From NCBI RefSeq assembly GCF_009831105.1, contig NZ_WUUQ01000002.1:480001-512000 (forward strand): 32,000 bases of DNA, written 5' to 3'. The stretch's first letter is position 1; each line of letters opens with the position of its first letter. Source of the DNA: Copranaerobaculum intestinale. GTDB taxonomy: Bacteria; Bacillota_I; Bacilli_A; Erysipelotrichales; Erysipelotrichaceae. The notes beneath the pieces are model-generated. The model did no database searches. It was not told where the DNA came from and saw only the letters and a list, made by a program, of their open reading frames with translations. This document shows, one piece after another, positions 5,248-23,858 of the stretch. The position numbers and the translations under genes are program-made.

Positions 5248-5586
5248 ATGAACACACAATTTAAAAAGGGCGTGCTGGAACTCATCGTACTGTTATCTGT
5301 TAACAAAAAGGACATGTACGGATATGAACTTGTATCAGAGGTCAGTAAGGTTGTAGATGTGAATGAAGGAACCATTTATCCGCTGTTGAAACGACTGACC
5401 AACGAGAAGTATTTTGAAACCTACTTGGAGGAATCCAAAGAGGGACCGCCCCGAAAGTATTATCATCTGACCATATTGGGAAGGCGATACCAGAAGGAGC
5501 TGCTCCGTGAATGGAGCACCTTCTGTAAACAGGTAAATGAATTTATTAAGGAGAGTGAAGAATATGACGAAGCAGCAGTTTATTGA
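5248..5586 (+). CDS. PadR family transcriptional regulator
   Basis: ATG 5248 follows GAGGTGAGGTG. KKGVLELIVLLSV...MYGYEL...EGTIYPLLKRL...RKYYHLT is the classic PadR wHTH signature. Confidence 0.9.
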   Translation: MNTQFKKGVLELIVLLSVNKKDMYGYELVSEVSKVVDVNEGTIYPLLKRLTNEKYFETYLEESKEGPPRKYYHLTILGRRYQKELLREWSTFCKQVNEFIKESEEYDEAAVY

Positions 5587-6532
5587 TGAATTGAACCGTC
5601 GTCTTCAGATCATCAGTGAGAAAGAGCGAAAAGATATTATTGATGAATATTGCAATCACATTGATATGAGAATGGCGGAGGGGAAAAGTGAAGAGGAAGC
5701 AATAGAGGATTTCGGTGATATTGATGAATTGATTTCTGATATTCTGGATGCGTATAAAATTAATACGAAAAGTATGCAGGATGAAACCTTTGAAGGAAAG
5801 ATGAACCGCTTCCTGGATGATTTATTTGAAGGGCTCAAGAAAATTGTTTCCCATTTTACGTCCTTGGATATGGATGGGGTTGTTCATCTATTGTTTGAAT
5901 TGTTCATAACATTGATTATTCTGGCTGTGCTTCGCTGGCCATTTGAATTAATAGCCGATCTTGGTGACAGTTTGCTGGATTCGGTTTTCGGCTTTGGCAT
6001 CGGCAGCTTCTTCGGTGGATTGTGGCACGCGGTGGTAATGATTATTTTCATTGTTTTGTGTATCGTTGTGATCATTAATATTTTTGCCAAACGTGTAAGC
6101 CATTATCGGCACCGAGAACATGATGGAAAAACAGTAATCGATGATTTAAAAGAGAGTTTCTCTTTTGAACAAGCGAAGGAAAATATTCATAATATGAGCA
6201 ATGAAAAAGAGGCAGAAGCGGGAGCGGCCCATGAGAAGATGTATCATGAACGACAGCCGTATGATGACAAGGATGACCGCACGACTTACCGTTATCGCGA
6301 TAGCTCCGCAAATTCAGCTGTATCCATTCTTATCAAGATATTTGCGGTTCTCTGTATGATCCCTTTGATTGGCATTATGGTCGGTCTTTCGATTCTGCTG
6401 GCGATCATGGTCGTTTGCAGTGTGCAGGGCTTTACAATGGTTGGAGCTTATCTGATCGTGATCGGACTTATGATCGGTGATGGAGCGGTGATTGATCTTA
6501 TCAGCAGCTTTGCCTTCAAGGGAGGGAAATAA
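5564..6532 (+). CDS. DUF1700 (HAAS-like) domain membrane protein, PadR partner
   Basis: ATG 5564 follows AAGGAGAG and overlaps the padR 3' end. The N-terminus MTKQQFIDELNRRLQ...ERKDIIDEY..H......G.SEEEAIEDFGD is typical of DUF1700. Hydrophobic helices follow, separated by a His/Asp/Arg-rich loop. Confidence 0.8.
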   Translation: MTKQQFIDELNRRLQIISEKERKDIIDEYCNHIDMRMAEGKSEEEAIEDFGDIDELISDILDAYKINTKSMQDETFEGKMNRFLDDLFEGLKKIVSHFTSLDMDGVVHLLFELFITLIILAVLRWPFELIADLGDSLLDSVFGFGIGSFFGGLWHAVVMIIFIVLCIVVIINIFAKRVSHYRHREHDGKTVIDDLKESFSFEQAKENIHNMSNEKEAEAGAAHEKMYHERQPYDDKDDRTTYRYRDSSANSAVSILIKIFAVLCMIPLIGIMVGLSILLAIMVVCSVQGFTMVGAYLIVIGLMIGDGAVIDLISSFAFKGGK

Positions 6533-10581: not shown

Positions 10582-12579
10582 ATGAAAAAGATCGTTGTCT
10601 GTATATTTGCATGTATATCTTTAATAGGATTTGTATTATCATATGCAAATACAAGCGATATTTACAAATTATCATTATCTTTATCACCTGAACAAAACAC
10701 AAATGTTGTTCGCTTTTTGTATTCACATGATGATAATCTTAATAATCACGAAAATGATTTTATAGAAAAAATGATTTATATAAATGATAGGAATAATACA
10801 ACGATCATGAAAGTTTCACCGATTGATCAAACACATATTAATTATTATGCTTATTTTAAAAATGAGAATGTTTATCAGTATGCGGATCTCATTTTTACGA
10901 AACATGAAATGGATCGTTTGAATCAGAATAAATATTTTTTAATAACGAATGATCAAAATAGAAAAGCTGATTTATATTTTCCTATCTTTGCAAATGACGA
11001 AAAAGTGTATGTACATAATTTAAGGAATTACGATTCAATTGATGGACGTTATTCATTTATTGGAGCTAAGGCAAAAGATTCTTTTCTGCAACTTAAACAA
11101 AATTTTCCATCACTATCTTTTGAATTATTGAGTGAGGATGAAATTAAAATAAATAGCAATATATTGGATGCACCGCGAATACAAACATTCATTCAATTGT
11201 GTGTTATGCTTGTGATTATAGCAATTATTTGTCTATTAATGTATTATTCACAAATTCAAGAGAAGATAGCAATCAAAAAAATGTTTGGATATTCTTCAAT
11301 AAATATTTTATTAAAAGAGAATAGAAAAATGATCTTTGAAGTAATGGTTGTCAATGCTTTTGTTTTTATAGTATGCTTCTTGATCTCAGTGAAGCAATTT
11401 AACATGTTTTCAACATTATTAATAAAATATCTACTTTCTTTTTTTCTATCTGAAGTTATTATGCTTTTTATAATTTTAGTATTTTTATTTTACTTTTTTA
11501 AAAAAGTTGAAATCACTAATCTGTTGAAGCATCAATTCAATTATAAAGGTTTATTAACATTAAATTTAATATTACGCAGTATGATCGTGATATTTGGCGT
11601 ATCAATCATAGGAAATTATTTTAAGCCTATGATAGATGATGTTCAAGCGGTGCTTTCTTCCTTTCATTATCAACAGAACATTGAAGGTTATTATAAAGCG
11701 GATAACATGCAACAATTTGAATCAGATACAGTTGGCTATTTGCATGTTTTATACAATCAATTAAATGAATCTGGAGGAATTGGTGTGGAGACGCATTATT
11801 ATGGGGATTTAGATAGGGGACACATACCTTATCTAGGAGTGAATGCAAATTATATTAACAAAATGAATATAAAAGATAACTGTAATAAAGTCCTACATAT
11901 AAATGATAATGGTTATTATATTTTGGTTCCAGAAATTTATAAAAATGAGGTTAATAAATTTATTAAAAATGAACTAAGAAGTGATATTACGTGGAAAATA
12001 AAAACGATAAAAGATAATCAAGAATTTTTTACATTTGATAATTCAATCCATGAATCGGCAATGGGGTATGTTGAAAATCCATTTATAGTCGTATCTGATT
12101 TTGTGAATCCTTGGTTTGTTTATGGAACAGAAAAGCAGTTTGATAAAGATGAAATATATAAAGTACTAGTGTCAAAAGGGTATCAAGCAACTTTTGATAT
12201 ATATTCTGTTGATGAGACCTCCAAAGAACAATATCAGTTCACAATAAATAGATTGAAGGAGGAAATTCTTTTGATAAGCATTTCCTTTATGGCTTTATGT
12301 GCAGTAATATCCCAGTATGTAATTTCTTATATGAATGCTTTTAAGAAAGAAATTATGATTAAAAAAATGATGGGGCATAGTCTGATAAAACGTTATGATC
12401 GCATGCTGCTAATTATGACAATCTTTTATCTTGTGATTGCCGCTTATTACTTTGTATGGAATAGACCATTTATTGAGCAAATAACAGTTTTTGTGATATT
12501 CATGTTTGAATGCCTATATTCTGGATTTCTTATTGTAATTACTGAAAATAAAATAACGGCTGTAAGCCTTAAGGAGTAA
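10582..12579 (+). CDS. DUF1430-type bacteriocin-associated integral membrane protein (double FtsX-like permease)
   Basis: 665 aa with an N-terminal TM/signal anchor. It has two extracytoplasmic domains, each followed by a TM bundle. Each bundle is introduced by an FtsX-like motif (EKIAIKKMFGYS and KEIMIKKMMGHS). The gene lies immediately upstream of a lactococcin-972-group ATPase. Confidence 0.75.
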   Translation: MKKIVVCIFACISLIGFVLSYANTSDIYKLSLSLSPEQNTNVVRFLYSHDDNLNNHENDFIEKMIYINDRNNTTIMKVSPIDQTHINYYAYFKNENVYQYADLIFTKHEMDRLNQNKYFLITNDQNRKADLYFPIFANDEKVYVHNLRNYDSIDGRYSFIGAKAKDSFLQLKQNFPSLSFELLSEDEIKINSNILDAPRIQTFIQLCVMLVIIAIICLLMYYSQIQEKIAIKKMFGYSSINILLKENRKMIFEVMVVNAFVFIVCFLISVKQFNMFSTLLIKYLLSFFLSEVIMLFIILVFLFYFFKKVEITNLLKHQFNYKGLLTLNLILRSMIVIFGVSIIGNYFKPMIDDVQAVLSSFHYQQNIEGYYKADNMQQFESDTVGYLHVLYNQLNESGGIGVETHYYGDLDRGHIPYLGVNANYINKMNIKDNCNKVLHINDNGYYILVPEIYKNEVNKFIKNELRSDITWKIKTIKDNQEFFTFDNSIHESAMGYVENPFIVVSDFVNPWFVYGTEKQFDKDEIYKVLVSKGYQATFDIYSVDETSKEQYQFTINRLKEEILLISISFMALCAVISQYVISYMNAFKKEIMIKKMMGHSLIKRYDRMLLIMTIFYLVIAAYYFVWNRPFIEQITVFVIFMFECLYSGFLIVITENKITAVSLKE

Positions 12580-12582
12580 TCT

Positions 12583-13224
12583 ATGGAATATATAGAAGTA
12601 AAAAATTTAGTAAAGAGGTTTGATGATCATGTTATTTTACATGATTTTAATGCTCGTTTTGAAAAAGGGACACTAACTGCGATTACTGGAGAATCAGGTT
12701 GTGGAAAATCTACATTGTTAAACATCATCGGTTTGATAGAAAAGCCTACTTCTGGTGAAATCTTGTATCAAGGATTTGAAGGATTTAAGCTCGGATCTAG
12801 GACTGTTATGAATCTTTTGCGGTATGAAATAGCTTACTTATTTCAAAATTATGCATTACTTGATAATGAGACAGTAGAAGCTAATTTAAAAATCGCCATG
12901 GAATATTCAAAAGATAAAAAAGATAGGACAGCTATTAGCCAAGCGCTTGAAAAAGTGAATCTGTCTCCTGCGATTATAACGAATAAAGTATATACGCTAT
13001 CGGGAGGGGAACAGCAGCGTGTAGCTATGGCAAGAATACTTTTGAAACCCTGTACGGTTGTTTTAGCGGATGAACCTACCGGAAATTTAGATGAGGAAAA
13101 TAAGGCTGAAATATTTCAACTTCTGAAATTGATGGCAGAAAGTGGAAAAATTGTAATAGTAGTTACTCATGATCAAGCTTTGGCAATTCAATGCCATAAC
13201 AAAATCCACTTAGACAAGCAATGA
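12583..13224 (+). CDS. ABC transporter ATP-binding protein, lactococcin 972 bacteriocin-export group
   Basis: 213-aa stand-alone NBD. Motifs: Walker A GESGCGKST, Q-loop FQNYAL, signature LSGGEQQR, Walker B VVLADEPTGNLD, H-loop VTHD. The overall sequence matches my memory of the L_ocin_972_ABC family. Confidence 0.8.
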   Translation: MEYIEVKNLVKRFDDHVILHDFNARFEKGTLTAITGESGCGKSTLLNIIGLIEKPTSGEILYQGFEGFKLGSRTVMNLLRYEIAYLFQNYALLDNETVEANLKIAMEYSKDKKDRTAISQALEKVNLSPAIITNKVYTLSGGEQQRVAMARILLKPCTVVLADEPTGNLDEENKAEIFQLLKLMAESGKIVIVVTHDQALAIQCHNKIHLDKQ

Positions 13225-13327: not shown

Positions 13328-13351
13328 AAGAGGGACAGAAAGGTGGATGTC

Positions 13352-14209
13352 ATGGACTGGAACCAAACCCTGCAGAGGATCGTTGATTATGTAGAACTGC
13401 ATCTGCAGCGAAAGGAAGAACCGATCGATCAGGCGGAAATAGCACGGATTGCTGGATGTTCATTCAATTTTTATCAAAAAGTGTTTTCTTATATGAACAA
13501 TATTAGCTTTGCTGAATATGTCCGTAACCGAAAGCTTACGCTGGCTGGCTATGATTTAAAAAGTACGGGAATGAAGGTAGTGGAAATCAGCTATAAATAT
13601 GGGTATGATTCACCAACTTCCTTTTCAAAGGCGTTTCAGCTTTTTCATGGCATATCGCCAAGCATGGCAAGAAGCAGTTCCGCTCAGCTAAAAGTATATC
13701 CAAAAATGCAGCTCCATGAGAATGCAGAGTATTCATGGAAGCTGAAGCAGCTGCCGGCCTTTCGATTGATCGGAAAAAGTGTTACGGTTTCAGTAATGGA
13801 TGCAGCAAAGCAAATACCAAAATTTTGGAGTGATTGTCAAAATGATGGAACCTTTTATAAGCTGACACAATTTGATCGAGGTACTATAAAGGGAATGTTT
13901 GGAGGATTTCATCATTTAGATGAAACGAAAAATCAGATCACTTATACGATGTCGGTGATTGCTGATCAAGCTGCTCCTGAAGGTTATGATGAATGGTTGA
14001 TCTCAAAAAACACATGGGCGATCTTTGACTGCCGCGGACCTTTGCCGAAAGCGATACAAAATGGATGGAAATTCCTTCACGAGGAATGGCTTATGCAGTA
14101 TCCATTTGGTCATGCAAACAGTCCCGAATTAGAGTGGTACAGTCGAGGAAATGTCTACGATGACGCATATCTAAGTCAAATATGGATACCGATCATCGTT
14201 GAACCATAG
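13352..14209 (+). CDS. AraC/XylS-family transcriptional regulator with C-terminal GyrI-like effector-binding domain (Rob/MarA-type HTH first)
   Basis: The ORF track starts at GTG 13343. ATG 13352 is better spaced from GAAAGGTGG. The N-terminal dual HTH reads IARIAGCSFNFYQKVF...EISYKYGYDSPTSFSKAFQLFHGISPS. The C-terminal ~160 aa resemble GyrI-like small-molecule-binding domains. Confidence 0.85.
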   Translation: MDWNQTLQRIVDYVELHLQRKEEPIDQAEIARIAGCSFNFYQKVFSYMNNISFAEYVRNRKLTLAGYDLKSTGMKVVEISYKYGYDSPTSFSKAFQLFHGISPSMARSSSAQLKVYPKMQLHENAEYSWKLKQLPAFRLIGKSVTVSVMDAAKQIPKFWSDCQNDGTFYKLTQFDRGTIKGMFGGFHHLDETKNQITYTMSVIADQAAPEGYDEWLISKNTWAIFDCRGPLPKAIQNGWKFLHEEWLMQYPFGHANSPELEWYSRGNVYDDAYLSQIWIPIIVEP

Positions 14210-14707: not shown

Positions 14708-14763
14708 AAAAAAGACTGACCGCTTATCGTTTAGAAGAGTTTCTAACGCGGGTCAGTTTTTTT
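14704..14763. terminator. Bidirectional terminator between convergent genes
   Basis: A long imperfect hairpin with outer stem ACTGACC / GGTCAGT and inner stem CGTT-AGAA / TTCTAACG. An A8 run lies on one side and a T7 run on the other. It serves both the + gene ending at 14707 and the - gene ending at 14762. Confidence 0.7.
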
Positions 14764-16483
14764 ATTTGATATCTGCTATATGGATGCGGTTACGGCCGTG
14801 ATTTTTTGCATAATACATCGCTTCATCTGCTTTTGCGAATAAGGTTTGGTAGGTATCATCCTTGGAGGCATATGCTATTCCTAAACTTAAGGTTAATTGA
14901 AACTGATCCTTGATCCGGATCGTCCGCGCTTTTGCTGAAATTCTCTGGGCAATGGATTCAATGGCATCCATGCGGCTTTTAGGCAGGAAGATTAAGAACT
15001 CATCACCGCCGATGCGTCCGGCAATGTCTATATCCTGAATGGAGCTTTTTAGTATTTCAGTTACCTTCAGCAGGATATCGTTTCCTTCTAAATGTCCGAA
15101 AGAATCATTTACGCGTTTAAAATTATCAATATCGGTGATCATCATGACTCCGCCATGATCTTGCTGCAAATGATCCTCGATCATCAGTTCGGTACATTTA
15201 GGATTATACAAGCGGGTCAGGGCATCCCGCTGACTCAAATTGATTAAGGAATCCATGGCGTTTTTTTCTTCGGTGATATCCCGCCAGATTCCGATAAATT
15301 TATTTGGCTTTTGATCCTCGCTGTAAATCAGCTTGCCGCTGACGCGAATCCAAGTCCAGCAGTCGTTCAGATATTTTCGGATTTCAATGCTTTCATCTGA
15401 CAACTGTCCCAGTAAATAAGCTTTCAATGTACCAATATCGTCAAGATGTATTTGTCCGTTTGTTTCCAGATCATGGAAATAAGCTTCAATGCTGATCTTT
15501 TGTACAGGTTTGTGGCGATCGTAGTTTTCATGTTCATATTTCACCAAAGAATCATTCACAATATCATATTCAAACATGACGTCTGTAATATTTTCGAGAG
15601 CGATCCGATAACGCTCCTGTTCGACCTTTAACTGCATTTCCGCTTCTTTCATCGCGGTGATATCGGTAATCATACTGTTGATCTTAACTTTACCGTCGGA
15701 ACCGATACTTTTCTTACCGGTATCAAGAACCCAGATCAGGGAACCATCCTTTTTTTGAATGCGGTATTCCGCTTCATAGTTCAATCCCTTTGCAAACCAT
15801 TCTTCACACGATTTCAAGGCCGCCGGAAGATCGGGAGGGTACACCGCCCCGACTGCACAGCCATGACTCATTTCCATGAACTCATCATACGTATAACCGA
15901 GCATACTGCATAATCCTTCATTGACATAAAAATAGGAGAAGGTTTCATCATCGTTGCTTCCTTTTAATCCTCCGTTGATATTACTGCTGATCATATCGAT
16001 GACCTCTGATTTTTCATTTAGCAGCTGATTCATATAATCCATTGTTTGTTTTCCTACAGTTTTAGGAAAGTATGGGTCTTCATGCATTTCTTCATAGATG
16101 TTGGAATTATGCAGATGGTGGATTTTCCAGAGACCGTCCTGTTTTTGCATGGTAATGCTGCAGCGCTGCGTAACCTGCAGGATCAAGCCGTCTTCCGCAT
16201 TTGTCCGCAAATCGAATTTTCCCATGGTGATAGCATGATCTTCGGTTTCAAAAACCGTATCCAGATTTAAAAAGTCAAGACGACAGGAAGGAACCTCCGT
16301 TTTCCCTGCGTAAAAATACTTGCTTATCGCATCCTTGCCGATAAAATACTCATGATCACACGGACCGATCCAGGAGCAATCATCCATGAAATACCCCAAA
16401 ACAGTATCAATATCGCGAGTTACGTAAAATTCAATAAATAGGCTGCGGGTCAGGTCAGCCGGAGTTTCTGGATATATGCGCAT
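14762..16483 (-). CDS. Sensor diguanylate cyclase: NTF2/SnoaL-like N-domain, two PAS domains, GGDEF domain
   Basis: The C-terminus has the active-site motif RIGGDEFLIF with upstream DIDNFKRVND. Two PAS-like segments are present (YRIQKKDGSLIWV... and WTWIRVSGKLIY...IGIWRDITEEK). QDID sits where the RxxD I-site is expected. Confidence 0.88.
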   Translation of the reverse strand: MRIYPETPADLTRSLFIEFYVTRDIDTVLGYFMDDCSWIGPCDHEYFIGKDAISKYFYAGKTEVPSCRLDFLNLDTVFETEDHAITMGKFDLRTNAEDGLILQVTQRCSITMQKQDGLWKIHHLHNSNIYEEMHEDPYFPKTVGKQTMDYMNQLLNEKSEVIDMISSNINGGLKGSNDDETFSYFYVNEGLCSMLGYTYDEFMEMSHGCAVGAVYPPDLPAALKSCEEWFAKGLNYEAEYRIQKKDGSLIWVLDTGKKSIGSDGKVKINSMITDITAMKEAEMQLKVEQERYRIALENITDVMFEYDIVNDSLVKYEHENYDRHKPVQKISIEAYFHDLETNGQIHLDDIGTLKAYLLGQLSDESIEIRKYLNDCWTWIRVSGKLIYSEDQKPNKFIGIWRDITEEKNAMDSLINLSQRDALTRLYNPKCTELMIEDHLQQDHGGVMMITDIDNFKRVNDSFGHLEGNDILLKVTEILKSSIQDIDIAGRIGGDEFLIFLPKSRMDAIESIAQRISAKARTIRIKDQFQLTLSLGIAYASKDDTYQTLFAKADEAMYYAKNHGRNRIHIADIK

Positions 16484-16619: not shown

Positions 16620-17366
16620 TTAAAAGGAAGCCGGTATTTCCTCATCATGGTGCCAAAGGGCAACTTGTGCTTCATTATGCAGGCTCAACAAAAAATTATA
16701 ACGAGCCATTGGATATTTTTCGTAGAGCTCTTTCAACATATCTTTCATTTCCTGCCGCTCGGTGTACCCGTCATTGGGACAGGTAGATTTCACAAAGGGA
16801 ATCTGATTTACCTGCTGAGCCGTTAGGATATTTTCTTCATAACAGTACAAGAGCGGTCGGATAAAGGTGATGTTTTCACGGGTTAGATACATTTTCGGAG
16901 CGAAGGTTGCGATCCGTCCGCCATGGATCATATTCATGAACAGGGTCTCAACCGCATCGTTGCTGTGGTGGCCAAAGGCAACCTTTGTACAGTTCAGGGC
17001 TTTGGCTTCCTGTACCACTGCGCCTTTTTTCAGGGTTGAACATAAGGAGCAGGGGAGCTTATCATCCTTTTGATGAAGTTTCAGGATGCTGTATATTTTA
17101 CTGTCAAACATGTGAAATTCGATACCCATTTGTTTTGTGTAAGCTTTAATTTCATCGAAATTCATATTCGGGAAACCCATTTTGATATGAATGCCGACCA
17201 CTTGAAAGTTCTTGTGCTGAAATTTGCTGTACATATGCAGCGCAACGAGCAGCACCATGCTGTCCTTGCCGCCGGAAACACCTACTGCTATGCGGTCACC
17301 ATCTTCGATCAGCCGATAATCGCGATCCGCATTCCGAATATCTGCCAGCACCGTTTTTAAATCCAT
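16620..17366 (-). CDS. PP-loop ATPase, TtcA-like tRNA 2-thiocytidine / tRNA thiolation enzyme
   Basis: It has the SGGKDS PP-loop and the Cys motifs PCSLCS and STCPNDG. SD AAAGGGG lies upstream of ATG 17366. Confidence 0.8.
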   Translation of the reverse strand: MDLKTVLADIRNADRDYRLIEDGDRIAVGVSGGKDSMVLLVALHMYSKFQHKNFQVVGIHIKMGFPNMNFDEIKAYTKQMGIEFHMFDSKIYSILKLHQKDDKLPCSLCSTLKKGAVVQEAKALNCTKVAFGHHSNDAVETLFMNMIHGGRIATFAPKMYLTRENITFIRPLLYCYEENILTAQQVNQIPFVKSTCPNDGYTERQEMKDMLKELYEKYPMARYNFLLSLHNEAQVALWHHDEEIPASF

Positions 17367-17509: not shown

Positions 17510-18340
17510 ATGGATGGAATTTTACTGGTGAAGAAGGAAGCGGGAATGACTTCGCATGACGTTGTCGATCACCTTCGCCGGATCTTACATATGAAAAAAA
17601 TCGGTCATACGGGAACGCTGGATCCGGAAGCAACCGGTGTTTTAATGGTGTTGGTGGGAAAGGCATGTAAAGCTTTGCCGTATTTAGGCATGCAGGACAA
17701 ACGTTATGTGGCCACGATGGAGCTTGGATACAGCACAGAAACAGAAGATATTTGGGGGGCGAAGGTTGCTGAACAAGCAATTCTTCCCATCGCTGATTTT
17801 GCGGGGCTGCTGAAGCGTTTTGTCGGCCGCCAGCAGCAGATACCGCCGATGTACAGCAGTATTAAGGTCAATGGCCGCAAGCTGTATGAATATGCCCGCA
17901 AAGGTGAATATGTAGAGCGGAAGCCTCGGGATATTGAAATTTTTGACATAAAGATGCTGGATGAAAATAAACTATGTTTTGAAGTCGCATGCTCCAGCGG
18001 AACTTATATCCGTACATTGTGCACTGATATTGCGGCAGCCAGTGGAAATTTGGGGGTGATGAGCTCTTTGGTGCGTACCGCCATCGGACCGTTCACGCTG
18101 GATATGTGTGCGACACTGGATGAGATCAAAGCCGGCAGATTTACCCTGCATTCGTTATTAAAAGCATTGTCTCATTATGAAATTCTACAGCGGCCGATGG
18201 ATAGGGATGTGTTAAATGGCCGTCGAATCGTTCTAGATACCACAGCTGATGAAGTGCTGATTGCGGATGGCGATCTTGCGGTTGCGATTTATCAGCGGGA
18301 GAGTGGAAATCAGTTTCGCTGTGTAAGAGGTCTATGGTAA
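17510..18340 (+). CDS. truB: tRNA pseudouridine(55) synthase
   Basis: GMTSHDVV and GHTGTLDPEATGVL (catalytic Asp motif) are present, with a PUA-less short form typical of Firmicutes. Confidence 0.93.
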   Translation: MDGILLVKKEAGMTSHDVVDHLRRILHMKKIGHTGTLDPEATGVLMVLVGKACKALPYLGMQDKRYVATMELGYSTETEDIWGAKVAEQAILPIADFAGLLKRFVGRQQQIPPMYSSIKVNGRKLYEYARKGEYVERKPRDIEIFDIKMLDENKLCFEVACSSGTYIRTLCTDIAAASGNLGVMSSLVRTAIGPFTLDMCATLDEIKAGRFTLHSLLKALSHYEILQRPMDRDVLNGRRIVLDTTADEVLIADGDLAVAIYQRESGNQFRCVRGLW

Positions 18341-19263
18341 TGAGAATCGAGACAATCTATATGCGCTCACCGATTTTGACGATTGGAAAGTTCACAGCAT
18401 GTATCGGATATTTTGATGGAATTCACCGTGGTCACCAACGACTGTTGAAGCAGGTATTGGCTATCAGTAAACAGGATGGCAGCATACCGGCAATGATCAC
18501 CTTTGATCCTGATCCGTGGACGGTTTTGAAGCACGCTGCGGATTTGACCCATCTGACCATGATAGAAGATCGGGTACGCATTGCCGAATCCTTTGGAATC
18601 GAATGTATGGTGATCCTGCATTTCGATGAAGCCATGGCTGACTGTGAAGTGTCCCAATTTCACGATATGCTGAAAGCGATGGGGGTATCCACGCTGGTAT
18701 GCGGCTTTGATTTTCATTATGCGAAATATGGTCAGGGCAATATCAATACATTACTTTCACAATCTCTGTTTCAGGTTTCCGTTTGTGAACCGGTAATGGA
18801 CGGTATGCGAAAAATCAGTTCATCACAGATCGAGGAGTTAATTCAAAACGGTCAGATTTCGCATGCAAATGAACTTCTCGGCTATGCTTATTCAATCCAT
18901 GGTATCGTTGTTCAGGGCAATCAGGTAGGGCGGACAATCGGATTTCCGACTGCAAACATCGCTTTGCAGGATCCTTATGTCCTGCCTAAATCAGGGGTGT
19001 ATGCCGCAATGGCAGCAGTCGATAACCAAACGTATCGCTGTATGGTCAATATCGGCCATAATCCTACTTTTAATGAACGGCGTAAGCTTTCCGTTGAGGC
19101 ACATCTGTTAAATTTCCACGGAGATCTTTACGGATTGGATCTGAGATTGGAATTCTGCTGCTATCTGCGCGAGGAACAAAAATTCAAGGATAAGGCAGCG
19201 CTTGTCTGCCAGCTTCATAAAGATATTCAGGCCGTGGCAGCCTGCTTAGATGAAGGAGAATAA
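18340..19263 (+). CDS. ribF: Bifunctional riboflavin kinase / FMN adenylyltransferase
   Basis: GYFDGIHRGHQ, GFPTANI and the C-terminal kinase domain are present. The start is ATG 18340 (TAATG overlap with truB, 9 nt from AAGAGG). ATG 18334 is an alternative. Confidence 0.92.
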   Translation: MRIETIYMRSPILTIGKFTACIGYFDGIHRGHQRLLKQVLAISKQDGSIPAMITFDPDPWTVLKHAADLTHLTMIEDRVRIAESFGIECMVILHFDEAMADCEVSQFHDMLKAMGVSTLVCGFDFHYAKYGQGNINTLLSQSLFQVSVCEPVMDGMRKISSSQIEELIQNGQISHANELLGYAYSIHGIVVQGNQVGRTIGFPTANIALQDPYVLPKSGVYAAMAAVDNQTYRCMVNIGHNPTFNERRKLSVEAHLLNFHGDLYGLDLRLEFCCYLREEQKFKDKAALVCQLHKDIQAVAACLDEGE

Positions 19264-19266
19264 CAT

Positions 19267-20640
19267 ATGCGGTTAAAAGTATTTGATGTCATTGATGACA
19301 CCTTGTCACTGTTGGATAAGAACCAGGAACATTATCAGGATATCCGCAGAGAGGTTAAGGCCTATTTCAATCATATTTTTGAAGAGGACAATGAACGGAT
19401 CGTCGATATCAATTCTCGGATCAAGACCAAGGAAAGCCTGCGGGAAAAAATTATTCGCAATCGTTTCTATATAAATTATGAAACTCCGCAGGAGATCTTG
19501 GATCATCTCAGTGATTTGATCGGTTTTATCATTGAATGCCGGTTTATCGAGGAGGAATATCTGATCTTGAAGCAGCTGCGTTTATTTTTCAACAATCGAA
19601 AGGAAGCGGATGGTTATTACTATAATGATCTTAATCCTCGAGTATTTCTGGATGTTGCATCTCAGCAGCCTCAGGTGCAAAAAAATGGTTTTGCGATTTA
19701 TCGGATCGACGGTTATTACTTAGGAGAGCGCGGCCCGATTAACTTTGAGCTGCAGATCAAGGCGCTGGTGCATTCCTTTTGGGGAGAAATCGAGCACAAG
19801 CTTGTGTATAAGAATACAAATTACTATGTGTACGATGACTTTATGAAGGATATTCTGGCATCTATCAAGGCCAATCTGACGATCTTGGATCGGCAGCTGA
19901 ATATCGTCTATGACCAGATGCAGGATATGTCGAAGAATGATGTCAGTATTTCTGAAACCGGTTTTGAGAAATTGATTACCAAAGCGATCAACGATCTGTT
20001 TTTGATGAAGATGAATGAATCGATCGGCTTCACCCTCAATATTAAAAATACCAGCGCGATACTGGGTCATTATATCTTTATCAAAGATATCCGCTATGAC
20101 GGAGGCAATAATGATCGTATCTCGAAGCTGTTTAAGACCTTTAAAAAGCTAAACAGCGTTCAGATTGATTTTGAAAATGCCGTGGTGCTGGATGATTCTT
20201 TCCAATCGCCGGATATTTTCATTCATATTCTCGGTAATTATCTGCTGAGCGTTATCAACAGCGATTATGACTGGTTTGTGTTCTTCAAGATGCTGTTTGT
20301 TATTGAACCGGGTAACAATATGGAAGATTTCTCACTATTTTTAAACGTGATCAAGAATTATTTGGTCGATAATTATTGGCTGAATACCAGTTTCTTAAAG
20401 CTGCCGCTTGACGAGGGACAGCTGGTACATGAGGAGTGTGCAAAAATCCTAGCGCAGTCCCTTGTGGAAATTGGAACGATCAAAATCATTCACGACGATA
20501 AAATGATTCAGATCAATAAGGCATTTGTGAAATTTATCGAAGAATTGGAGACCCGTGTAATCTCCTATGATGACTTTATGCACTATCAGCAGGCTTACTA
20601 TGAAGACTGGCTGAAGCAGCTTCGGATTATTATGAAATAA
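19267..20640 (+). CDS. RelA/SpoT (small alarmone synthetase-like) nucleotidyltransferase domain protein with an uncharacterised ~265-aa C-terminal domain
   Basis: GAAGGAG SD, with the start 3 nt after the ribF stop. The ordered motifs are SRIKTKESLREKI, DLIGFIIECRF, GFAIYRIDG and FELQIKALVHSFWGEIEHKLVYK. The C-terminal half has no motif I recognise. Confidence 0.8.
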   Translation: MRLKVFDVIDDTLSLLDKNQEHYQDIRREVKAYFNHIFEEDNERIVDINSRIKTKESLREKIIRNRFYINYETPQEILDHLSDLIGFIIECRFIEEEYLILKQLRLFFNNRKEADGYYYNDLNPRVFLDVASQQPQVQKNGFAIYRIDGYYLGERGPINFELQIKALVHSFWGEIEHKLVYKNTNYYVYDDFMKDILASIKANLTILDRQLNIVYDQMQDMSKNDVSISETGFEKLITKAINDLFLMKMNESIGFTLNIKNTSAILGHYIFIKDIRYDGGNNDRISKLFKTFKKLNSVQIDFENAVVLDDSFQSPDIFIHILGNYLLSVINSDYDWFVFFKMLFVIEPGNNMEDFSLFLNVIKNYLVDNYWLNTSFLKLPLDEGQLVHEECAKILAQSLVEIGTIKIIHDDKMIQINKAFVKFIEELETRVISYDDFMHYQQAYYEDWLKQLRIIMK

Positions 20641-20698: not shown

Positions 20699-21169
20699 AT
20701 GAATAAGCAAGCACTCGCCTTTCTGACCCTGTTTTCTTTGATTCTGATGTTGTCGGTATACTATGTGACGCTGCCGGCTGATACGACAACGGTCATGAAA
20801 AATAATAAGACCAGTCAGAAAGCAGAAACCAAAAACAATGCAGATGAATTAAAAAAGAAATCGGATGAGAAAAAAGATAAGGAAATCAACAGTAATTCCG
20901 ATGTGGTTTCTTCACCGGATACATCCGAACAGGAAAAGCAGGAAGCACTTAAAAAGATCGAAAGTCTGAAGGATACCAAAGAGATTGAACAGGCATTGAT
21001 CGACGGCTTGAAAAAAGCGGGTTATACATCAGCGGTGGAGATCAGTGACAATACGTGCAAGGTAACGGTTTTTGATCAAAAGAATGATAAAGAAACCGCT
21101 AAAAAAGTCATGCAGTATGTGTACGATGTGACAAAGGGAAAATATTTGACAGAAGTATCGTTTAAATGA
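20699..21169 (+). CDS. spoIIIAH: SpoIIIAH-like protein (N-terminal TM, Lys/Glu-rich linker, YscJ/FliF-like C-domain)
   Basis: The N-terminus LTLFSLILMLSVYYV resembles B. subtilis SpoIIIAH (LSVYY). The C-terminus EQALIDGLKKAGYTSAVEISDNTCKVTVFDQKNDKETAKKVMQYV resembles the SpoIIIAH ring domain. It sits just upstream of asp23-nusB, as in Bacillus. Confidence 0.7.
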   Translation: MNKQALAFLTLFSLILMLSVYYVTLPADTTTVMKNNKTSQKAETKNNADELKKKSDEKKDKEINSNSDVVSSPDTSEQEKQEALKKIESLKDTKEIEQALIDGLKKAGYTSAVEISDNTCKVTVFDQKNDKETAKKVMQYVYDVTKGKYLTEVSFK

Positions 21170-21217
21170 TGCAATGGCTGAAAAAGTCTGTTATAATAGC
21201 AATAGAAGGTGATAATC

Positions 21218-21547
21218 ATGGCACAGGAATATATTGCATTAAAACAGCGTAATGAAATTGGTTTAATTGCGATCAATAAATCAGTTTTTCAGACGATTGC
21301 GAAAATCGCAGTAGAAGAGGATGAGCATGTGGTGCTGCACGATGCTACACCATTTAAATATCCGATCGGCTGTAAGGTAGTCAATGATCAGTTGATTCTA
21401 ACATTGGAGATCAAGGTGGACTATAAGGTGAATGTCAATGAGACATGCAGCCGTCTGCAGACGAAGATTTATGAAAGCATTGAACATATGAGTGACTATG
21501 CACCGGATGTTATTGATATCCGTGTCATTGGCTTCTTATTTGAATAG
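21218..21547 (+). CDS. Asp23/Gls24 family envelope stress protein (YqhY-like)
   Basis: ATG 21218 follows GAAGGTGA. GLIAINKSVFQTIAKIAVEE...VNVNETCSRLQTKIYESIEHMSD...IDIRVIG is typical of the Asp23 family. Confidence 0.85.
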   Translation: MAQEYIALKQRNEIGLIAINKSVFQTIAKIAVEEDEHVVLHDATPFKYPIGCKVVNDQLILTLEIKVDYKVNVNETCSRLQTKIYESIEHMSDYAPDVIDIRVIGFLFE

Positions 21548-21648: not shown

Positions 21649-22953
21649 ATGGATCAAACAATTCAATCATTGTTTCAATTTATCAAAAATAGTCCCAGCT
21701 GCTTTCATGCGGCTATGTCAATGGCAAAGCAGTTGGAAGCAGCCGGTTATCATGAATTAAAGGAATATGACAGCTGGAGGCTGCAGCCGGGCGGCCGGTA
21801 TTACATGGAGCGAAATCAGTCCAGTATTGTGGCGTTTCAGCTTCCGATGCAGGAAGCAACCCATTTTCAGATTACTGCCAGTCACAGTGATTCGCCTTCT
21901 TTCAAGCTGAAGCCGAAAGCAGAGATGGATGTATATGGTACCTATATAAAGCTGAATGTAGAAGGATATGGAGGCATGCTTTGTTCCACCTGGTTTGATC
22001 GGCCGCTGGCAATTGCCGGACGGGCAGTTATCAAGACGAAGCAGGGGATTGTAAGCCGGCTCGTTCATATCGATGAGGATCTGGTATTGATTCCCAATGT
22101 AGCGATTCATATGAACCGTAATGCCAATTCCAATATCAGCTATAATATACAAAATGATCTGTTACCGTTGTATGCGATGAAGCAGGAAGATGATGTAATG
22201 GATGTGATTGCGGCGGCCGCCGGATGTGATAAGACCGCTGTCATCAATACGGAGCTGTTCTTATACAATCGTCAGCAGGGCAGCGTTTGGGGGGCTCACA
22301 AAGAATTTATCAGTGCGCCGCAGCTGGATGATCTGGAATGTGCCTTTACCGCTTTGCAGGGATTTTTGCAGGCTAAGGCAGAACATTCAGCAGTCAATAT
22401 ATTCTGCTGCTTCGATAATGAAGAGGTGGGAAGCGGTACAAAGCAGGGAGCGGACTCTACCATGCTTCATGATGTGTTAGCACGGATTGCGGATGGTATG
22501 GGGATGGAAGCCGGCAAGCTGCCGCAAATGATCGCACGGTCGATCATGCTGTCAGCGGATAATGCACATAGCCTGCATCCTAATCACAGTGAACTGCATG
22601 ATCCAAGCAATCCGATCTTTATGAACCGCGGTATTGTAATTAAGCACAGTGCCCGTCAGAGCTATACAACCGATGCCCTAAGCGCAGCTGTTTTTAAAGC
22701 GCTCTGTGAAAAAGTAAACGTACCGGTGCAGGAATTTGTAAACCGCAGCGATATTCCCGGCGGCGGCACCCTGGGCAGTATTTCGGCCTCCCATGTATCC
22801 ATTTTGAGCTGTGATATCGGTTTGGCTCAGCTGGCAATGCATTCCGCATATGAAACTGCCGGGGTGCAGGATGTCCAGGATATGATCAAGGTGATGCGAT
22901 GCTTCTATGAAACAAACATTGATCTGCGCGGTGACGCGATCAAGCTGAGATAG
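21649..22953 (+). CDS. M18 family aminopeptidase
   Basis: 434 aa. FIKNSPSCFHA at the N-terminus, HSDSPSFKLKP, FDNEEVGS and SADNAHSLHPN are characteristic M18 (aspartyl aminopeptidase-like) metal-ligand motifs. Confidence 0.88.
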   Translation: MDQTIQSLFQFIKNSPSCFHAAMSMAKQLEAAGYHELKEYDSWRLQPGGRYYMERNQSSIVAFQLPMQEATHFQITASHSDSPSFKLKPKAEMDVYGTYIKLNVEGYGGMLCSTWFDRPLAIAGRAVIKTKQGIVSRLVHIDEDLVLIPNVAIHMNRNANSNISYNIQNDLLPLYAMKQEDDVMDVIAAAAGCDKTAVINTELFLYNRQQGSVWGAHKEFISAPQLDDLECAFTALQGFLQAKAEHSAVNIFCCFDNEEVGSGTKQGADSTMLHDVLARIADGMGMEAGKLPQMIARSIMLSADNAHSLHPNHSELHDPSNPIFMNRGIVIKHSARQSYTTDALSAAVFKALCEKVNVPVQEFVNRSDIPGGGTLGSISASHVSILSCDIGLAQLAMHSAYETAGVQDVQDMIKVMRCFYETNIDLRGDAIKLR

Positions 22954-22958
22954 CTGTT

Positions 22959-23858
22959 ATGCCGAAAACCTTGAATGATTGTCTGGTGATCGCAATATCT
23001 TCGCGGGCGCTGTTTGATATGAGCGAACCCAACCGCATTTACGAAGAAGAAGGTTTGACTGCTTACAGCAAATATCAGATTGAACACGAATCGGATGTTT
23101 TAAAACCCGGATCGGGATTTCCGCTTGTGCAAGCCTTGTTGAAGCTAAATGAGCTGATCCCGCAAAAACGGCTTGTTGAAGTAGTGATCATGTCGCATAA
23201 CAGTGCCGATACCTCTTTGCGCATCTTTAATTCCATCGCTCATTACGGTTTGGATATCTCCCGTGCGGTGCTCAGCGGCGGATCATCAATATCTACTTAT
23301 CTGGAAGCATTTCAGGCAGATCTGTTTTTGTCCGCTTTTGAAGCGGATGTCAACATGGCGATCAACAGCAATATTGCGGCCGGATTAATCTACACCGATC
23401 CGATTCGCTCTATGGATCAACCGATTGATCAGATCCGCATCGCATTTGACGGAGACGCTGTGCTGTTCTCGGATGAATCCGAACGCATCTATCAGGAAAA
23501 AGGATTGGAGGCGTTTGTTCGCAATGAGCAGGAAAAGGCTCAAAAGCCTTTGCCGGAAGGACCTTTTGCGAAATTTTTAAAAACTATATCAGCCCTGCAG
23601 GAGCAATTCGATCAAGATGCGTCACCGATCCGTACGGCTCTGGTAACCGCCCGCAGTGCTCCGGCACATGAACGGGTGATCAAAACTTTACGGGCATGGA
23701 ATGTCCGTATCGATGAAGCGTTTTTTCTCGGCGGTTTACGAAAACAGGATGTTTTACAGGCCTTTAAACCGCATATTTTCTTTGACGATCAGGCAGTGCA
23801 TGCCGATCCTGCCAGTAAAGTGGTACCCAGTGCCAGAGTACCTTATAAGAATTCATGA
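22959..23858 (+). CDS. 5'-nucleotidase (cN-IA-like bacterial 5-nucleotidase family)
   Basis: LVIAISSRALFDMSE...YEEEG...Y..YQIEHE and the IAFDGDAVLFSDESE motif (HAD-like DxDxV) match my recollection of this family. Confidence 0.65.
   Translation: MPKTLNDCLVIAISSRALFDMSEPNRIYEEEGLTAYSKYQIEHESDVLKPGSGFPLVQALLKLNELIPQKRLVEVVIMSHNSADTSLRIFNSIAHYGLDISRAVLSGGSSISTYLEAFQADLFLSAFEADVNMAINSNIAAGLIYTDPIRSMDQPIDQIRIAFDGDAVLFSDESERIYQEKGLEAFVRNEQEKAQKPLPEGPFAKFLKTISALQEQFDQDASPIRTALVTARSAPAHERVIKTLRAWNVRIDEAFFLGGLRKQDVLQAFKPHIFFDDQAVHADPASKVVPSARVPYKNS

Follow-up and report, generated by a model that had tools for sequence, protein, structure and literature searches.

The window analysed here, a 32,000-nucleotide stretch of Copranaerobaculum intestinale DNA (RefSeq assembly GCF_009831105.1, contig NZ_WUUQ01000002.1, positions 480,001 to 512,000), contains directly downstream of ribF a gene for a 457-residue protein of the small alarmone synthetase (SAS) type, in which a RelA_SpoT nucleotidyltransferase (SYNTH) domain is joined to a long helical C-terminal domain. 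A first-pass annotation had picked out this open reading frame (ORF), which is indeed present, and had read it as a SAS-like enzyme fused to an unknown domain, probably acquired and a candidate self-neutralised toxic SAS (toxSAS) of the CapRel kind. The fusion stands; the toxSAS and acquisition part does not, given the gene's synteny, its co-divergence with truB and the proximity of its product to RelP and RelQ. We favour, with a probability of about 60%, an uncharacterised, vertically inherited, two-domain housekeeping alarmone synthetase of the RelP/RelQ type, probably regulated in cis, and not a toxin or defence protein.

By Pfam threshold, fold and catalytic residues alike, the protein is a genuine member of the RelA/SpoT homologue (RSH) SYNTH superfamily. 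Scored with the RelA_SpoT profile (PF04607; gathering score 27), residues 50-185 reach 46.1 bits (E = 6.8e-12) and cover positions 1-112 of the 113 in the profile, and the four motifs quoted in the first-pass annotation are found at residues 50-62, 83-93, 141-149 and 160-182. A phmmer search of all PDB chain sequences at E <= 10 returned RelP and RelQ only (best E = 5e-8), as did a profile of 29 family members run against the PDB sequences (E = 2e-9 to 2e-6), in which Rel, CapRel, FaRel2 and Tas1 gave no match at E <= 1. An AlphaFold2 (AF2) model of the full-length protein, built on the 29-member alignment, is confident for residues 1-176. Foldseek searches of the PDB placed RelQ and RelP structures in all of the top 39 positions (E ~1e-7, target TM-score 0.62-0.73, ~215-230 aligned columns), over a span that takes in the complete SAS fold, from its N-terminal helices to alpha5, whereas CapRel (7ztb; E = 4e-4, 9-10% identity, root-mean-square deviation ~11 A) and FaRel2 (E = 2e-3) matched 1e3- to 1e4-fold more weakly. 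The nearest relatives by sequence and by fold are the housekeeping enzymes RelP and RelQ. The protein is nonetheless not an equivalog of either, scoring 33.4 bits with the NCBIfam YjbM equivalog model (GTPPhKinYjbM), for which the cutoff is 320.

The ATP and metal site is preserved to a degree that suggests a working enzyme. In Staphylococcus aureus RelP (SaRelP), Steinchen and colleagues (Steinchen et al. 2018, PMC5794853) found the adenine sandwiched by R78 and R112, the phosphates bound by K80, K88, R91 and S84, Mg2+ by D107 and E174, and the ribose by H190. We mapped these ligands through a HMMER alignment to SaRelP, in which the alignment numbering is the native RelP numbering, and followed them in an alignment of 358 full-length family members of 24-100% identity to the window protein, the set behind the conservation values given for the ATP, metal and acceptor sites. 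Eight of the nine ligands are retained in the window protein, R78, K80, S84, K88, R91, D107, E174 and H190 becoming R51, K53, S57, K61, R64, D83, E161 and H177, respectively; seven of these are 100% invariant in the family and R64 is conserved in 98%. The invariant positions extend beyond the ligands, comprising R51, K53, S57, K61, D83, G86, E161, Q163, H177, Y181 and K182. Because the catalytic residues remain 98-100% conserved down to 24% identity, selection on the donor and metal site appears to be of the kind that an active enzyme would experience.

The second domain has no recognised counterpart. The first-pass annotation had recognised no motif in the last ~265 residues. No Pfam family matches this part of the protein, and none was found in it for any of 32 family members. 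Residues 190-457 are conserved over their entire length among homologues. Alignments with RelP and RelQ reach approximately residue 220, and within the connector D208 never varies and L204 is conserved at 99%. Modelled alone from 32 sequences of 29-63% identity, residues 190-457 form 13 helices with a predicted TM-score (pTM) of 0.72 and the best confidence past residue ~300. Foldseek found no fold match for this domain in the PDB (best E 0.96, probability 0.08), bearing out the first-pass view of it as unfamiliar, and none among the predicted viral structures of BFVD (best E 0.61). The idea that the domain is a degenerate HD hydrolase was dropped, since no HD motif is conserved and since neither RSH hydrolases nor Mesh1 appear among the 50 best-ranked PDB matches listed for it. 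An exhaustive profile search of 1.84 billion representative proteins recovered the domain in 191 clusters at E <= 1e-3: the full-length matches are all 441-512 residues long with the domain at ~189-456, and the shorter ones resemble fragments. A word-index search with the C-terminal part alone returned close family members only. The domain is confined to this fixed architecture of ~455 residues. It is strongly acidic (isoelectric point (pI) 4.9, net charge -12), and the N-terminal domain is acidic too (pI 5.6, net charge -5); medians over the family equal these values. Four database entries of ~265-273 residues (P0121, P0124, P0248 and P0271), one of them on a 429-kb contig, hold the C-terminal domain alone, and may stem from wrongly placed starts, from frameshifts or from genes that are truly split.

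Relatives of the gene are widespread and, in the Erysipelotrichaceae, fixed in place. When one genome was scanned for each GTDB species, at least 552 of these genomes proved to encode a relative, and neighbourhood statistics were taken from the best 80 of these at least 552 related loci, which belong to Longicatena, Amedibacillus, Dielma, Merdibacter, Massilicoli, Breznakia, Anaerorhabdus, Holdemania, Solobacterium, Bulleidia, Lactimicrobium and Galactobacillus. A minus-strand ttcA-like gene followed by truB, ribF, in some cases an rsmF-like gene, and the SAS gene is the order in 71 of the best 80 loci. Within these 71, the SAS gene follows ribF directly in 39, and in 32 an RsmF-type 5-methylcytosine (m5C) RNA methyltransferase gene lies between the two; the Holdemania example (locus L040, 4655-5986; RsmB-F, RsmF_N and PUA domains) overlaps ribF and is separated from the SAS gene by 14 nt. 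The window genome has no rsmF-like gene at that position. Downstream, asp23 lies within 1.5 kb of the SAS gene in 67 of the best 80 loci. SAS identity tracks TruB identity across the 71 syntenic loci (r = 0.90), and among closer relatives the SAS protein, at a mean identity of 66%, is better conserved than TruB (55%) or RibF (45%). The SAS gene is chromosomal, strongly conserved and vertically inherited in this family.

Outside the Erysipelotrichaceae, full-length homologues of ~25-40% identity occur in Proteocatella and Acetoanaerobium (Peptostreptococcales), in Clostridium butyricum and C. hydrogeniformans, and in Tissierella, Ezakiella and Parvimonas (Peptoniphilaceae/Tissierellia). The Clostridia homologues are isolated among unrelated genes, without linkage to truB-ribF. 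That of C. butyricum lies on a ~0.8-Mb chromid and is annotated as '(p)ppGpp synthetase'; on this chromid (pNPD4_2; locus L081, 7567-8088), a gene of the 2'-5' RNA ligase (2H phosphoesterase) family stands 184 bp after the homologue and a GNAT acetyltransferase gene precedes it, neighbours that offer a possible functional hint from one lineage only. Database names for the family are generic ('RelA/spoT family protein', 'GTP pyrophosphokinase', 'hypothetical protein'), and a narrow literature search found no paper on it.

In the window itself, the start of the ORF is supported by M1-R2-L3, invariant in 29 homologues. Its ATG (19267) is separated by 3 nt from the stop codon of ribF (19261-19263) and has a Shine-Dalgarno-like GAAGGAG of its own, just as first annotated. 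Given the 7-nt overlap of truB and ribF, the 3-nt gap between ribF and the SAS gene, and a scan that found no plus-strand terminator-like site between these two, truB, ribF and the SAS gene probably form a single transcription unit; the promoter and terminator scan otherwise yielded nothing convincing, and there were no Rfam or tRNA matches in the window. Base composition gives no sign of acquisition. The G+C contents of 35-37% for this gene and 52% for ribF, from which acquisition had been suspected, were not reproduced: the values are 39.5% and 45.2%, and at third codon positions (GC3) the SAS gene, at 51.3%, lies above ribF, at 46.1%. The low overall G+C arises at second codon positions (21% G+C) because the protein is rich in Ile, Phe, Tyr, Asn, Lys, Asp and Glu. 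Horizontal acquisition was rejected on the normal GC3, the synteny and the co-divergence with truB.

Under the reading we prefer, the N-terminal domain (residues 1-189, running into helix alpha5) would be a catalytically competent, ATP-dependent pyrophosphokinase of the RelP/RelQ type, and the protein would descend from the RelP/RelQ lineage by gain of the C-terminal helical domain and remodelling of the acceptor loop. After the RelP mechanism, ATP would be held by R51, K53, S57, K61, R64 and H177 and Mg2+ by D83 and E161, a purine nucleotide would stack on F142 in an acceptor loop that is rigid and contains Pro, and its 3'-OH would attack the ATP beta-phosphate, so that the beta,gamma-pyrophosphate is moved to the acceptor 3'-OH; the likeliest products would be guanosine alarmones ((p)ppGpp or pGpp). 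In SaRelP the acceptor base stacks on Y151 of this loop, the G-loop, which P146 rigidifies (PMC5794853). The proline is kept as P135 and suggests a pre-ordered acceptor loop here as well, in which case control would come from elsewhere. A candidate is the acidic, all-helical C-terminal domain (~225-457), which may be a cis-acting regulatory or oligomerisation module built on helix alpha5: in RelQ, it is through alpha5 that allosteric signalling by pppGpp reaches the G-loop (PMC5794853), and as the C-terminal domain is attached through this same helix, such a role would be the most economical one. The gene would be co-transcribed with truB-ribF and would encode a housekeeping synthetase of the Erysipelotrichaceae and some Clostridia.

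Several observations weigh against this reading. The acceptor loop is unlike that of all characterised (p)ppGpp synthetases: SaRelP Y151 is replaced by F142 and R152-S-L-H155 by A143-I-Y-R146, the Lys before N-G is probably replaced by Gln, and ahead of the loop stands a segment ~13 residues longer than in RelP, the extra residues being modelled as short strands. A guanosine acceptor is for this reason not assured; it remains the favoured choice, though far from certain. The pocket appears particular to this family, whose nearly invariant motif reads Q134-P135-Q-x-Q138-x-N140-G141-F142 ... Y145-R146-x-D148-G149, with Q134, P135 and N140 invariant, Q138, G141, D148 and G149 conserved in at least 99%, and residue 142 Phe in 87% and Tyr in 5%. 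Acceptor specificity, moreover, can be neither read from nor swapped through the syn motifs (PMC12226406); converting those of Apk2 toxins left their specificity unswitched (PMC12226406), so that motifs cannot settle the acceptor. On the donor side, the ninth SaRelP ligand, R112, is I88 in the window protein (19528-19530), and this second adenine-sandwich site holds Thr in 141, Arg in 75 and Ile in 61 of the 358 members; the sandwich arginines are highly conserved in RelSeq, RelTt, RelP and RelQ (PMC7983052). The three departures from the consensus listed by the first-pass annotation are real when set against RelP (I88 for the Arg of DxxGxR, IKA for IRT and R146 for the His of YRSxH). The full-length AF2 model has a pTM of only 0.51, with low confidence for residues 177-300; it is from its placement only that a regulatory role is suggested for the C-terminal domain; and the neighbouring genes for tRNA and rRNA modification (truB, ttcA-like, rsmF-like) leave room for an RNA-related role. 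Close to residue 88, R92 is conserved in 93% of the family and might substitute for the lost adenine-stacking arginine.

The first-pass annotation had suggested that donor, acceptor or activity may differ from classical (p)ppGpp synthesis, and for the acceptor this may hold. The altered loop is the argument for a housekeeping nucleotide pyrophosphokinase, C-terminally regulated, that uses a non-guanosine acceptor and makes, for example, (p)ppApp or another 3'-pyrophosphorylated nucleotide. The donor residues are invariant, yet the acceptor loop has been rebuilt as QPQxQxNGF..YRxDG with extra residues before it, Tyr changed to Phe and the R-S-x-H residues lost. Against this, the closest relatives synthesise (p)ppGpp or pGpp, the loop keeps its N-G-aromatic core, the neighbourhoods examined contain neither a conserved (p)ppApp hydrolase nor any other conserved partner, and specificity is not predictable from motifs alone (PMC12226406). 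We consider this alternative unlikely. We would also give a low probability to a broader version, in which a core-genome pyrophosphokinase acts on an acceptor other than GDP or GTP (an adenosine nucleotide, or a 3' end of tRNA or rRNA on which the neighbouring truB, ttcA-like and rsmF-like enzymes act) and its domain of unrecognised fold senses a translational or metabolic cue. The genomic setting suggests in addition an RNA-directed enzyme, one that pyrophosphorylates tRNA or rRNA, or binds or is regulated by it, as part of an operon for maintenance of the translation apparatus: the linkage to truB and to the divergent PP-loop ttcA-like gene is conserved, an rsmF-like gene lies directly upstream in 32 of the 71 loci, and the discussion in PMC5794853 describes an RNA-bound state of RelQ. 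Linkage is weak functional evidence here, as truB-ribF is a universal operon fragment and the Clostridia homologues lack it; the protein is also acidic overall and has no detectable similarity to tRNA-modifying toxSASs beyond the common fold, and such an enzyme appears quite improbable. Loss of one conserved adenine-stacking Arg and of several acceptor-loop residues could instead point to a catalytically inactive pseudo-enzyme, serving as a scaffold or nucleotide sensor. With D83, E161, K53, K61, S57, R64 and H177 98-100% conserved across sequences only 24% identical, this is barely credible.

What remains is the reading from which the analysis started, a fused, self-neutralised toxSAS whose C-terminal domain, as in CapRel, masks a toxic, tRNA-pyrophosphorylating N-terminal domain until phage trigger it. 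It has some appeal, as the protein combines a SYNTH domain with an extra C-terminal domain and has no separate antitoxin, CapRel is among the Foldseek matches, and FaRel2 itself comes from Coprobacillus, an Erysipelotrichaceae genus (PMC11559606). The earlier statement that no antitoxin-sized ORF is adjacent needs amending, because a 156-residue ORF begins 58 nt downstream, but its product is a SpoIIIAH-like membrane protein and not an antitoxin; the gene is found in the loci of many syntenic relatives and is absent from many others. The CapRel match is ~1000-fold weaker than those to RelQ and RelP, sequence searches found no toxSAS even at E <= 10, and the all-helical C-terminal domain of 270 residues matches no PDB structure, CapRel included. 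PADLOC gave no match for the protein. No relative was present among the 2.9 million viral contigs of IMG/VR, and tblastn of phage genomes produced two weak matches, both to the N-terminal domain only. Surveyed for a defence context, the neighbourhoods yielded truB, ribF, rsmF, spoIIIAH-like and asp23 genes, with unrelated genes in Clostridia, and no conserved small partner gene of the bi- or tricistronic toxin-antitoxin (TA) kind was seen in the Erysipelotrichaceae or Clostridia neighbourhoods examined. Moreover, tRNA-targeting toxSASs have highly basic tRNA-binding grooves (PMC11559606), and the net charges of -5 and -12 given above, which are whole-domain values and not those of surface patches, are negative. 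Carried by at least 552 species and normal in GC3, the gene behaves as a vertically inherited core gene, syntenic and co-diverging with truB across the Erysipelotrichaceae, with a putative housekeeping role. The protein lacks the testable defining features of toxSASs (a TA-like operon, closeness in sequence or fold to a toxSAS subfamily, and a mobile or patchy distribution). We regard a CapRel-like function as very improbable, and a toxSAS or defence role was discarded on the evidence of PADLOC, tblastn of phages and plasmids, IMG/VR, gene neighbourhoods and composition.

Comparison with known systems places the RelP/RelQ-type synthetase proposed here close to, and distinct from, its relatives. 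It shares with RelP and RelQ the full SYNTH fold with N-terminal helices and alpha5, eight of nine ATP and Mg2+ ligands, the RelP-like proline of the acceptor loop, a chromosomal location and the lack of an antitoxin. RelP and RelQ act as homotetramers that make (p)ppGpp or pGpp from ATP and GTP, GDP or GMP. RelP and RelQ, in contrast, are single-domain proteins of ~200-230 residues with a G-loop Tyr followed by R-S-x-H, and they have neither the ~270-residue C-terminal helical extension, nor the F142-A-I-Y-R146 loop, the ~13 extra pre-loop residues and the non-conserved second adenine-stacking Arg of this family. With CapRelSJ46, FaRel2 and PhRel2 it has the RelA_SpoT SYNTH fold in common, and with CapRel also an extra C-terminal domain in one polypeptide; it differs from them in showing a weak structural match (~10% identity for CapRel) and no sequence match, in a C-terminal domain larger than that of CapRel, all-helical and unmatched by solved structures, and in being acidic, fixed in a vertically inherited locus and absent from phages and defence contexts. 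Chromosomal, non-toxin SASs with two domains have precedents in Mycobacterium smegmatis MS_RHII-RSD (PMC7591505) and in actRel with DUF429 (PMC3153485), which likewise fuse a SYNTH domain to a second domain; their partner domains are recognisable (RNase HII and DUF429) and N-terminal, whereas that of the present family is C-terminal and has no detectable relatives. Atkinson and colleagues (Atkinson et al. 2011, PMC3153485) defined cloRel, an uncharacterised Clostridia SAS subgroup from C. difficile, C. perfringens, C. tetani and Finegoldia magna, in a set that includes no Erysipelotrichaceae genome and in which SASs are described as SYNTH-only, with no mention of a C-terminal domain (PMC3153485). 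Compared by taxon lists only, cloRel and the present family overlap in Peptostreptococcales, Peptoniphilaceae/Tissierellia and Clostridium, and from this overlap the two may be the same. The C. difficile literature and transposon-sequencing (Tn-seq) tables did not resolve a third synthetase.

Table 1. Coordinates of the SAS gene, its parts and its neighbours in the window.
Feature	Position	Strand	Basis
Complete ORF, two-domain SAS, 457 aa + stop	19267..20640	+	ORF list; full-length homologues in hundreds
SYNTH (RelA_SpoT nucleotidyltransferase) domain, residues 1-189	19267..19833	+	Pfam match to residues 50-185 (19414-19821)
Acceptor-site loop ('G-loop'), residues 134-149, QPQVQKNGFAIYRIDG	19666..19713	+	Aligns to SaRelP P146...Y151-R-S-L-H155
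Helical connector, residues 190-300; first long helix corresponds to RelP/RelQ helix alpha5	19834..20166	+	AF2 helices, low confidence
Core of C-terminal helical domain, residues 301-457, motif N-x-D-[YF]-x-W-x-x-F-F-x-x-L-F	20167..20637	+	AF2 predicted local distance difference test (pLDDT) ~80-95
truB, tRNA pseudouridine-55 synthase, first gene of apparent operon	17510..18340	+	Pfam TruB_N, E = 7.5e-51
ribF, bifunctional riboflavin kinase / FAD synthetase	18334..19263	+	Pfam Flavokinase, FAD_syn
Shine-Dalgarno-like GAAGGAG, inside ribF end, 8 nt 5' of SAS ATG	19252..19258	+	Read from sequence
SpoIIIAH-like membrane protein	20699..21169	+	Pfam SpoIIIAH, E = 3.4e-9
Asp23/YqhY-like protein, conserved downstream anchor of synteny block	21209..21547	+	Pfam Asp23

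Downstream of the SAS gene, the window continues with the usual Firmicutes backbone of spoIIIAH-like, asp23/yqhY, nusB, xseA, ispA, dxs and rrmJ genes, with genes for an M18 aminopeptidase and a PF06189 5'-nucleotidase (21649-23858, +) between asp23 and the VanZ and nusB genes. The aminopeptidase gene occupies that place in 3 of the best 80 loci (L001, L002 and L020), and the 5'-nucleotidase gene is common among closer relatives. Divergent from truB are a PP-loop (TtcA-like) ATPase gene (16620-17366, -), which is part of the conserved synteny block, and a gene for a SnoaL-PAS-GGDEF diguanylate cyclase (14762-16483, -), which was not seen in related loci. The real compositional anomaly of the window, which has 42% G+C overall, is a sharp low-G+C island at 10582-13224 (+) where a gene for a 665-residue DUF1430 membrane protein (27% G+C, GC3 23%) adjoins that of a 213-residue ABC ATPase (34% G+C, GC3 25%); the island has the look of an ABC-type module for export or immunity gained by horizontal transfer. 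Genes for a HAAS-domain membrane protein (5537-6532, +) and an AraC/GyrI-like (Cass2) regulator (13343-14209, +) are unrelated to the SAS gene.

The combination of a SYNTH domain with an extra C-terminal domain is, on this evidence, not by itself an indicator of a CapRel-like defence protein. If the acceptor proved to be other than GDP or GTP, the family would put to non-toxic, housekeeping ends a chemistry otherwise known from toxSAS toxins alone, and if the C-terminal domain gates the enzyme, this would be a new mode of SAS regulation beside pppGpp and RNA for RelQ and transcription for RelP. Clinically relevant Clostridia may harbour a third, overlooked type of synthetase, as the homologues found in Clostridium, Peptostreptococcales and Peptoniphilaceae suggest. 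In the Erysipelotrichaceae, which abound in the gut and whose alarmone metabolism is unstudied, this SAS appears to be clade-wide and, among close relatives, more conserved than TruB.

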